A stretch of 64,000 bases of DNA from Escherichia coli (GCF_001677475.2 NZ_CP015229.1), one strand, 5' to 3'. Shown: positions 21,124 through 21,353, counted from the stretch's first letter. The notes: generated by a model from the letters alone, not told the origin. Numbers and translations are program-made.

Positions 21124-21353
21124 AATTAATTAATGTCATCAGATCCGAAAATAACGAGAATATTTCAGTCTCTCATCCTGTTGCGCTCCTGTCATGTGCA
21201 TTGCTTCATATAATCACTGGCGCAAGGAACGCGCAGGGGGCGGCCAATCGCCGCCGCCCCCTGCACCCCCGGGCTCTGGCGAACAAAATCGCCGCTGCGC
21301 GGTGCCCTCGGCTTATCCCTTGCGGCTACCGGGTCGGGCGCGAGGTAACATAT

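Follow-up and report, generated by a model that had tools for sequence, protein, structure and literature searches.

ISEc81, an IS1111-type insertion sequence, splits the TRIP1c/RRS-dusC repeat of Escherichia coli at a hairpin loop

In the Escherichia coli chromosome NZ_CP015229.1 (GCF_001677475.2), the spacer between the convergent genes yohP and dusC contains a transposase gene set between two GC-rich, palindromic flanks, and the question raised by this locus is whether the flanks belong to the insertion sequence (IS) or to the site that it entered. We analysed a stretch of 64,000 nucleotides around this locus (hereafter the window, with positions counted from its first letter), in which the split spacer lies between 21123 and 22880. 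A preliminary description made from the sequence of the window left two options: an IS of 1.6-1.7 kb with the flanks as its terminal regions, or a smaller IS inside a palindromic target resembling an attC or a repetitive extragenic palindromic (REP) site. We are highly confident that the flanks are the halves of a resident repeat, known both as TRIP1c and as the replication risk sequence (RRS) RRS-dusC, which has been split at an AT in the loop of its second hairpin by ISEc81, an IS of the RNA-guided type. The boundaries of the insertion, the identity of the flanks and of the IS, its site and orientation specificity, and the conserved fold of the repeat were all observed directly in the comparisons described below.

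Boundaries of ISEc81 and identity of its flanks

The site in K-12 is empty, and there the flanks are contiguous (...GGTAACAT|CCCTGTAAAACG...) and 98% identical to those of the window. The K-12 spacer is one uninterrupted sequence of 371 bp that reads ...GGGCGCGAGGTAACAT|CCCTGTAAAACGCGCCC... around the insertion point, and the reconstructed flanks of the window match it with 98.1% identity across the whole 372-bp spacer. Comparison of the junctions, GGTAACAT|CCCTG in K-12 versus GGTAACAT-ATATGG...CTCATTAT-CCCTG in the window, places the insert at 21352-22736, which amounts to 1385 extra bases including one AT (1386 bp in intact copies). Queries spanning the junctions were matched in full by IS-bearing genomes, whereas IS-free genomes matched the flank half exactly and stopped at the insertion point. 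Across 5426 complete E. coli genomes, the flanks are present in 5425 and the IS in only 179.

These empty sites decide the first of the two options. An IS of 1.6-1.7 kb ending in the GC-rich palindromes had been suggested by the inverted symmetry of the flanks around the transposase gene, and the GC content of the flanks does differ sharply from that of the remaining spacer. The larger IS is refuted because the junction queries in IS-free genomes match only up to the insertion point, with contiguous flanks in K-12 and in thousands of further genomes; IS-free copies of the flanks also exist at aqpZ-lysO, putP-efeU (a partial copy), and asmA-yegH, and the IS is found in far fewer genomes than the flanks. 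We therefore assign this alternative a probability next to nil.

The insert itself is ISEc81, a catalogued IS and an IS1111-type member of the IS110 family. Its transposase is near-identical to that of the ISfinder element ISEc81 as given in supplementary file 6 of PMC11187229. In the window copy, a 1-bp deletion (one G) near 21868 shifts the reading frame relative to the intact 341-aa gene of the 1386-bp copies. The domain searches were carried out on the intact protein of a sister copy, which matched NF033542 with 357.6 bits (cut-off 140), PF01548 with E = 1e-14, and PF02371 with E = 4e-24; the transposase thus combines an N-terminal DEDD (RuvC-like) domain with a C-terminal IS116/IS110/IS902 domain. 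The 11-bp inverted repeats of the preliminary description, ATGGACGCTCC at 21354-21364 and GGAGCGTCCAT at 22718-22728, form a perfect pair, set 2 nt inside one end of the IS and 8 nt inside the opposite end. Downstream of the transposase gene, the non-coding region measures 273 nt (from the stop at 21625 to the end at 21352); upstream of the start it is 87 nt long. ISEc81 thereby shows two hallmarks of IS1111-type elements, namely inverted repeats in subterminal position and an extended downstream non-coding region (PMC11187229). The 179 ISEc81-bearing genomes hold it in 339 places, with 1-4 copies per genome. With its transposase frameshifted, the copy in the window could move only if complemented in trans; this copy also carries a T-to-C change at 21489, inside the predicted 3′ guide discussed below. 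Partial IS matches on plasmids (H89 and H90) were remnants without usable flanks and were set aside.

The flanks, in turn, are the two halves of the resident chromosomal element TRIP1c/RRS-dusC, of about 270 bp and roughly 65-70% GC. TRIP1 was described by Rudd in 1999, and TRIP1c corresponds to NC_000913.3 2229122-2229394 (Li et al. 2024, PMC10888264), an interval that falls inside the spacer matched by the window flanks, at the locus also named yohG-yohI after older symbols for yohP and dusC. RRS-dusC (Pham et al. 2023, PMC10287960; Pham et al. 2024, PMC10592627) is a 222-bp GC-rich "replication risk sequence" that occupies bp 58-281 downstream of dusC, a definition that maps to about 21214-21351 plus 22737-22822 in the window. 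The RRS literature itself equates RRS with TRIP1 and reports that RRS-dusC and its twin near lysO flank the Ter macrodomain and trigger lagging-strand post-replication gaps, and that the element is conditionally essential in MG1655 (PMC10287960, PMC10592627). A G-quadruplex in RRS blocks polymerases (PMC10592627), and the published G-quadruplex-forming sequence, 5′-GGGGGTGCAGGGGGCGGCGG-3′, is matched exactly on the minus strand of the window (21270-21251), where it overlaps the first of the two palindromes. The published element and that of the window therefore share their locus, 98% identity, the exact G-quadruplex sequence, the GC richness, and the potential for structure; they differ in that the element of the literature is uninterrupted, whereas that of the window is split into 172 bp and 101 bp by a 1.4-kb IS. 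The loading of RecA and SSB at RRS gaps, as seen by ssGap-seq, has been shown with the uninterrupted K-12 element only. The annotation of NC_000913.3 gives no feature in the yohP-dusC spacer, and the TRIP1 and RRS literature that we searched contains no mention of an IS inside the element.

The second option of the preliminary description, a palindromic target of the attC or REP kind, thus stands in part. An IS1111-type IS does sit in a hairpin loop of a structured repeat, but that repeat is TRIP1c/RRS-dusC and neither REP nor attC: Rfam gave no REP-related match in the flanks, although REP-type naRNA4 matches were obtained at other loci, no integron context is present at the locus, and the flanks align instead to TRIP1. 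The same description had named, as the outcome that would refute it, that the flanks be ordinary yohP-dusC spacer with no copies elsewhere. They are indeed conserved spacer in strains without the transposase gene, but extra copies exist at other loci. Besides those listed above, copies at alx-sstT and copA-ybaP are known from the literature. The copy at asmA-yegH is a sixth, more divergent TRIP1-like element (about 80-85% identity), which is absent from K-12 and from the published list TRIP1a-e and is also a target of ISEc81.

A repeat found at several loci might itself be mobile, and we considered whether TRIP1/RRS is a non-autonomous element, similar to a miniature inverted-repeat transposable element (MITE), that ISEc81 or a relative mobilises, so that IS and flanks would form one nested mobile system. 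TRIP1 occupies five or six loci with variable presence, has long inverted symmetry, and is found in either orientation at one locus, for example inverted in yohP-dusC of a B2 strain and in aqpZ-lysO of PNUSAE151638. Against this, the ends of TRIP1 resemble neither the ends of ISEc81 nor the ATGGACGCTCC repeats, the loci are few, fixed, and conserved in position across enterobacteria that lack the IS, and 97% of E. coli genomes have TRIP1 without ISEc81. On these comparisons of ends, loci, and genome counts, we consider a MITE-like origin very unlikely and retain the view of TRIP1c as a resident element entered by ISEc81.

The conserved fold of TRIP1/RRS and its relation to TwoAYGGAY

The features that first drew attention to the flanks were all recovered on re-examination. 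The GC content is 71% at 21214-21351 and 65% at 22737-22822 (69% overall), compared to 49% in the insert and 51% in the whole window. Both palindromes have perfect arms: 12 bp in the first (GCAGGGGGCGGC/GCCGCCCCCTGC at 21233-21244 and 21253-21264, with an 8-nt loop) and 10 bp in the second (CAGCCCACAT/ATGTGGGCTG at 22755-22764 and 22767-22776, with a 2-nt loop). The inverted 11-mer CAAAATCGCCG lies at 21284-21294 and 22799-22809, and the extended imperfect similarity attributed to it corresponds to 16 nt with 88% complementarity (21284-21299 with 22794-22809). Chance is an unlikely source of the palindromes because, out of 1000 dinucleotide-preserving shuffles of the 224-bp GC-rich core (loop ≤12 nt), a perfect stem of ≥10 bp arose in 12 and one of ≥12 bp in 2, while the real core carries both. 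Only about nine distinct perfect hairpins of such size exist in the whole window.

The two palindromes and the inverted 11-mer are all helices within a single conserved fold, in which the first palindrome forms a G-rich hairpin, the second forms hairpin 1, and the 11-mers are part of a long outer stem that closes the junction. Aligning 23 distinct copies from Escherichia species, Kluyvera, and Pseudocitrobacter gave a consensus fold of 69 pairs, in which 98.2% of the cells are paired and 14 pairs show compensatory changes. None of 500 shuffles reached these values, and slid controls were 40-48% paired. Covariation was seen at 6 pairs of the long-range helices, one of which is A-U in 10 copies and G-C in 9. 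A rough tally, in which minus-strand G-U pairs seem to outnumber non-standard cells, suggests that the G-rich strand (minus in the window) is the folding strand. The insertion of the IS leaves the G-quadruplex half intact and breaks the long-range fold.

The position of the palindromes between the convergent genes yohP and dusC, together with their strong, GC-rich stems, would also fit ordinary bidirectional terminators. Neither stem is followed by a T-run, however, and at aqpZ-lysO the same element lies between co-directional genes. Terminators would moreover not suffice to explain the repeat family, a 270-bp, multi-copy, covarying structure with documented activity at the DNA level, which makes this explanation highly improbable. 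An idea that TRIP1 carries a promoter was dropped, as the copies do not share the TATAAT near 21209-21214.

Comparison with Rfam points to a family for this conserved structure. TwoAYGGAY (RF01731; Weinberg et al. 2010) is listed there as an RNA without an assigned function, and binding to CsrA has been suggested for it (Gardner and Eldai 2015, PMC4333381). The empty-site copy of K-12 (L001:1664-1815, minus strand; L numbers are our locus labels) scored 30.9 bits against this model (E = 0.006), below the gathering threshold of 43, and a scan of the split window copy returned no TwoAYGGAY match, only sub-threshold noise (AgvB and microRNA models). The TRIP1 copy of Kluyvera genomosp. 3 (L024:9515-9676), on the other hand, reached 54.2 bits over the full-length model, which is above the threshold, and hairpin 1 of TRIP1 has the same sequence as its counterpart in bona fide TwoAYGGAY RNAs from metagenome-assembled genomes of Lachnospiraceae (L023, L032, and L033; 72-79 bits). 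On these two grounds we place TRIP1/RRS in the TwoAYGGAY family. The outer stem of the model, which closes both hairpins, is present in TRIP1 as the long-range helices 21276-21333/22778-22819, and it covaries. Like TwoAYGGAY, the G-rich strand of TRIP1/RRS has an outer stem that encloses a pair of neighbouring hairpins with loops of the AUGGAU type. The loop of hairpin 1, AUGGAU, fits the model; that of hairpin 2 is AUGGAU in Kluyvera, but in Escherichia it is AGGGAU or AGGGAC and does not fit. The E. coli element further differs from the model by its additional G-rich hairpin and G-quadruplex, which lie outside it, and RRS has been reported to act at the DNA level. The hairpin-2 loop UACAGGGAUGU presumably matches the CsrA consensus obtained by systematic evolution of ligands by exponential enrichment (SELEX). 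A literature search for TwoAYGGAY returned no paper on RRS or TRIP1, and the RRS and TRIP1 texts that we searched for CsrA contain no mention of it. Separately, in Pseudocitrobacter and Kluyvera (L017:2218-2281, L038:5670-5733, and L040:4104-4167) we observed a second two-hairpin TwoAYGGAY core of 49.2 bits, above the threshold, at about 80 nt from the TRIP1 copy and on the opposite strand.

Target choice and the predicted seekRNA of ISEc81

To describe the target of ISEc81, we inspected eight copies (the window, L002, and L007-L012) that cover the three loci yohP-dusC, aqpZ-lysO, and asmA-yegH. Their junctions are identical and their orientation relative to TRIP1 is the same; only the AT core is repeated on both sides, with no conventional target duplication. 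The 20-bp target site is ACAGGGATGTTACCTCGCG, and insertion takes place at the AT in the loop of hairpin 2 (ACAGGG-AT-GTTACCTCGCG). The canonical left and right junctions were each found in 173 of the 175 genomes with a near-full-length IS. The hairpin-2 loop of TRIP1/RRS is a new target for the IS1111-type family.

Two further settings of the IS were noted. The IncFIB plasmid NZ_CP076707.1 (L044:760-2200) carries a frameshifted ISEc81 variant with 93% aa identity at a non-TRIP1 site, ...GTGCCGGA-AT-[IS]-AT-GTTACCTCACAGC, which has in common with TRIP1 the right half-site only, 10 bp, ATGTTACCTC. In strain N3 (L008:976-3300) and in a B2 strain (L004), the whole of TRIP1c lies in reverse orientation at its usual place, in a yohP-dusC spacer that is itself different; N3 also has a duplicated yohP, and one of its IS junctions reads GT and the other AT. 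The TRIP1 variant of N3 has CAGGGACGTT in the loop, so a mismatch in the core seems to be tolerated.

How ISEc81 might find this loop is suggested by its non-coding region. Downstream of the transposase gene, at the position where IS1111-type elements encode their seekRNA (PMC11187229), we predicted a seekRNA core in which an outer stem encloses a large internal loop and an inner hairpin; its folding energy of -32.2 kcal/mol (z = -4.3) was reached by none of 200 shuffles. In ISYen1, a related IS on a Yersinia plasmid (L043:780-2230), the non-coding region aligns with that of ISEc81, and the outer stem covaries between the two (GGCAGG/CCTGCC in ISEc81 versus AGTGAG/CTCACT in ISYen1). On the 5′ side of the internal loop lies a predicted top-strand guide, CGAGAGGUAACA, whose matching flank CGCGAGGTAACA abuts the insertion point. 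On the 3′ side, (C/U)AGAGGAUGAU weakly matches CAGGG-AT-G and would be the bottom-strand guide; this segment and the left half-site CAGGG|AT are common to ISEc81 and ISYen1. The order of the guides, with the top-strand match 5′ of the bottom-strand match and the two overlapping at the core, fits IS1111-type seekRNAs, as does the architecture of the loop. That order has been shown experimentally for IS1111-type seekRNAs, and the mechanism has been demonstrated for ISEc11, ISPa11, and ISKpn4 (PMC11187229). A 7-mer match between the non-coding region and the target (CGTTTTA) was rejected as a guide, 7-mers being expected by chance and this one lying far from the predicted loop. The flanks of ISYen1 are palindromic around CCGCCAGGG-AT, and its 5′ guide resembles the left arm of its palindromic site.

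By analogy with its experimentally studied relatives, ISEc81 would most likely excise as a circle, with a predicted junction ...GTCCATATATAATGAG... Joining the ends in silico produced TTGCAT and TATAAT separated by a 16-nt spacer and facing the transposase gene, so the joined ends of the circle would form a promoter. The circle would then integrate by RNA-guided recombination, the seekRNA from the downstream non-coding region pairing with both target strands around the AT core. We infer the circle intermediate and the seekRNA with its guides, as well as any effect of the insertion on RRS function, from these comparisons.

A different mode of target recognition has to be weighed here, namely that ISEc81 finds its site mainly by DNA shape, as an extruded hairpin or as single-stranded RRS DNA, and not by seekRNA pairing. 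The insertion point is in a hairpin loop, RRS DNA is often single-stranded after passage of the fork, the ISYen1 site is palindromic too, and IS1111-family elements are often located in foldable sites such as REP and attC. What speaks for pairing instead is that sequence matching the flank lies in a bridge-like internal loop of the non-coding region, that the plasmid variant outside TRIP1 keeps the 10-bp right half-site, and that relatives have been retargeted by altering their seekRNA. Recognition mainly by shape appears unlikely on this evidence, and the two modes are not mutually exclusive.

The evidence for the guides is nonetheless modest. A 9-mer match to the 30-bp target was obtained in 75 of 2000 shuffles (about 4%), the match of the proposed 3′ guide is weak (5-7 nt), and the 5′ guide of ISYen1 has no match to its right flank in the single copy examined. 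The transposase may read the hairpin shape of the target as well as its sequence, and strand exchange would take place within or beside the AT.

Set against known systems, ISEc81 shares with ISEc11, ISPa11, ISKpn4, and IS4321/IS5075 (PMC11187229) a DEDD transposase with PF02371 in its C-terminal part, subterminal repeats, and a long downstream non-coding region. Like these elements, it inserts in one orientation at a single site and makes no conventional duplication; its target is repeated and foldable, and a promoter would arise at the predicted circle junction. It differs from the demonstrated elements in its new target, in that its seekRNA and circle are predicted, and in that the copy of the window is a frameshifted pseudogene. 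IS621 belongs to the same superfamily and is likewise RNA-guided; its core measures 2 bp, and it too targets an intergenic palindromic repeat of E. coli. Unlike ISEc81, it is of the IS110 type, with its guide (bridge) RNA upstream of the transposase gene, no subterminal repeats, REP as its target, and a CT rather than AT core; the two proteins are not close, and ISEc81 groups with IS1111-type transposases in the identity matrix of PMC11187229.

The features of the locus are collected in Table 1. Between yohP and the start of TRIP1, the interval 21146-21206 gave an AgvB match in Rfam of 22.9 bits against a threshold of 56, which is probably noise.

Table 1. Coordinates of ISEc81, of the TRIP1c/RRS-dusC halves, and of neighbouring features in the window
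Feature	Position	Strand	Basis or remark
ISEc81 (IS110 family, IS1111 type)	21352-22736	-	Boundaries from empty sites; transposase near-identical to ISEc81 entry
Transposase gene, pseudogene in the window copy (open reading frames of 311 aa and 95 aa)	21625-22649	-	Open reading frame calls; comparison with intact gene
Subterminal inverted repeat ATGGACGCTCC, right end in IS orientation	21354-21364	.	Kept in ISYen1
Subterminal inverted repeat GGAGCGTCCAT, left end in IS orientation	22718-22728	.	Inverted-repeat search
AT core dinucleotide, left junction	21350-21351	.	Single AT in empty site
AT core dinucleotide, right junction	22735-22736	.	Flank match in IS-free genomes begins at query position 59-60
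Left part of TRIP1c/RRS-dusC, G-quadruplex-containing half, 172 bp	21180-21351	.	Contiguous with 22737-22837 in K-12
Right part of TRIP1c/RRS-dusC, 101 bp	22737-22837	.	Alignment to TRIP1 copies; PMC10888264
Published RRS G-quadruplex-forming sequence	21251-21270	-	Exact match; PMC10592627
G-rich hairpin (first palindrome)	21231-21266	-	Helices 11-12; 4 pairs with compensatory changes (C-G to A-U or U-A)
3′ arms of long-range helices, including 11-mer 21284-21294	21276-21333	-	Helices 1-6, pairing with 22778-22819
5′ arms of long-range helices, including second 11-mer 22799-22809	22778-22819	-	Consensus structure
Hairpin 2, 3′ arm CGCGCCC (minus strand), pairing with 22747-22753; loop is the ISEc81 target	21336-21342	-	Consensus fold; hairpin intact in empty sites
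Hairpin 2, 5′ arm GGGCGCG (minus strand)	22747-22753	-	Consensus fold
Hairpin 1, loop AUGGAU (second palindrome)	22755-22776	-	Invariant in 23 copies
Predicted seekRNA core: outer stem, large internal loop, inner hairpin (21491-21504)	21462-21534	-	Predicted fold
Predicted 5′ (top-strand) guide CGAGAGGUAACA	21506-21517	-	11/12 match, 9 contiguous, to flank CGCGAGGTAACA (21339-21350)
Tentative 3′ (bottom-strand) guide CAGAGGAUGAU (UAGAGGAUGAU in other copies)	21479-21489	-	GGAUG equals target GG-AT-G across core
yohP, small membrane protein of 27 aa, left neighbour of spacer	21040-21123	+	Open reading frame; annotated yohP in K-12 and other genomes
dusC, right neighbour of spacer	22880-23827	-	Gene call; annotation in K-12

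Interrupted RRS elements and their implications

To determine how often the two Ter-flanking elements are occupied, we counted junctions with queries carrying unique flanks. ISEc81 lies directly beside dusC in 93 genomes and beside lysO in 94, and at least 31 complete genomes are in both lists, NC_010498.1 (L045, L046) and NZ_CP062824.1 among them. As ISEc81 stands at dusC and at lysO in these genomes, both of their Ter-flanking RRS are interrupted. Genomes without any uninterrupted TRIP1 core number 21 of 5425.

The IS is also present at rearranged loci. A Ter-spanning inversion of 1.3 Mb in strain SMS-3-5 has been attributed to recombination between TRIP1 repeats (PMC10888264). We found an intact ISEc81 at both breakpoints of this TRIP1a/TRIP1c inversion (L045:1-3428 and L046:1-3489), where the junctions read aqpZ-IS-dusC and yohP-IS-lysO. 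Strain IAI39 (L011) has the same kind of hybrid junctions, with a yohP-IS-lysO junction and a second ISEc81 copy abutting dusC. Homology between IS copies, or the IS recombinase, rather than TRIP1 may have driven those inversions.

Both components of this locus were already known, TRIP1c/RRS-dusC from publications and ISEc81 from the catalogue, and the result is mostly a clarification. The pairing of this IS with its target, the TwoAYGGAY link, and the double interruption of RRS appear to be unreported in the searchable literature, which does not cover the ISfinder entry. The pairing joins an IS1111-type, presumably seekRNA-guided IS to the RRS/TRIP1 hairpin-2 loop as its dedicated target. Natural isolates in which both RRS are split make it possible to test directly which part of the RRS is required, and they bear on its reported conditional essentiality. 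The TwoAYGGAY link, for its part, ties an element with a measured phenotype at the DNA level to an orphan Rfam family for which CsrA binding has been hypothesised.

We lean modestly towards a joint reading, which unites matters kept apart in the searchable literature into one system, and in which RRS/TRIP1 is the gammaproteobacterial form of TwoAYGGAY and ISEc81 homes to the second AYGGAY-type loop and often occupies both Ter-flanking RRS. The doubly occupied genomes provide natural strains in which an element reported as conditionally essential is interrupted twice, and on this reading the inversions would have an alternative cause in IS homology or the IS recombinase. It would also follow that either RRS acts as a CsrA-type RNA as well, or the TwoAYGGAY motifs, including those of gut Clostridia, are structural elements that act at the DNA level.

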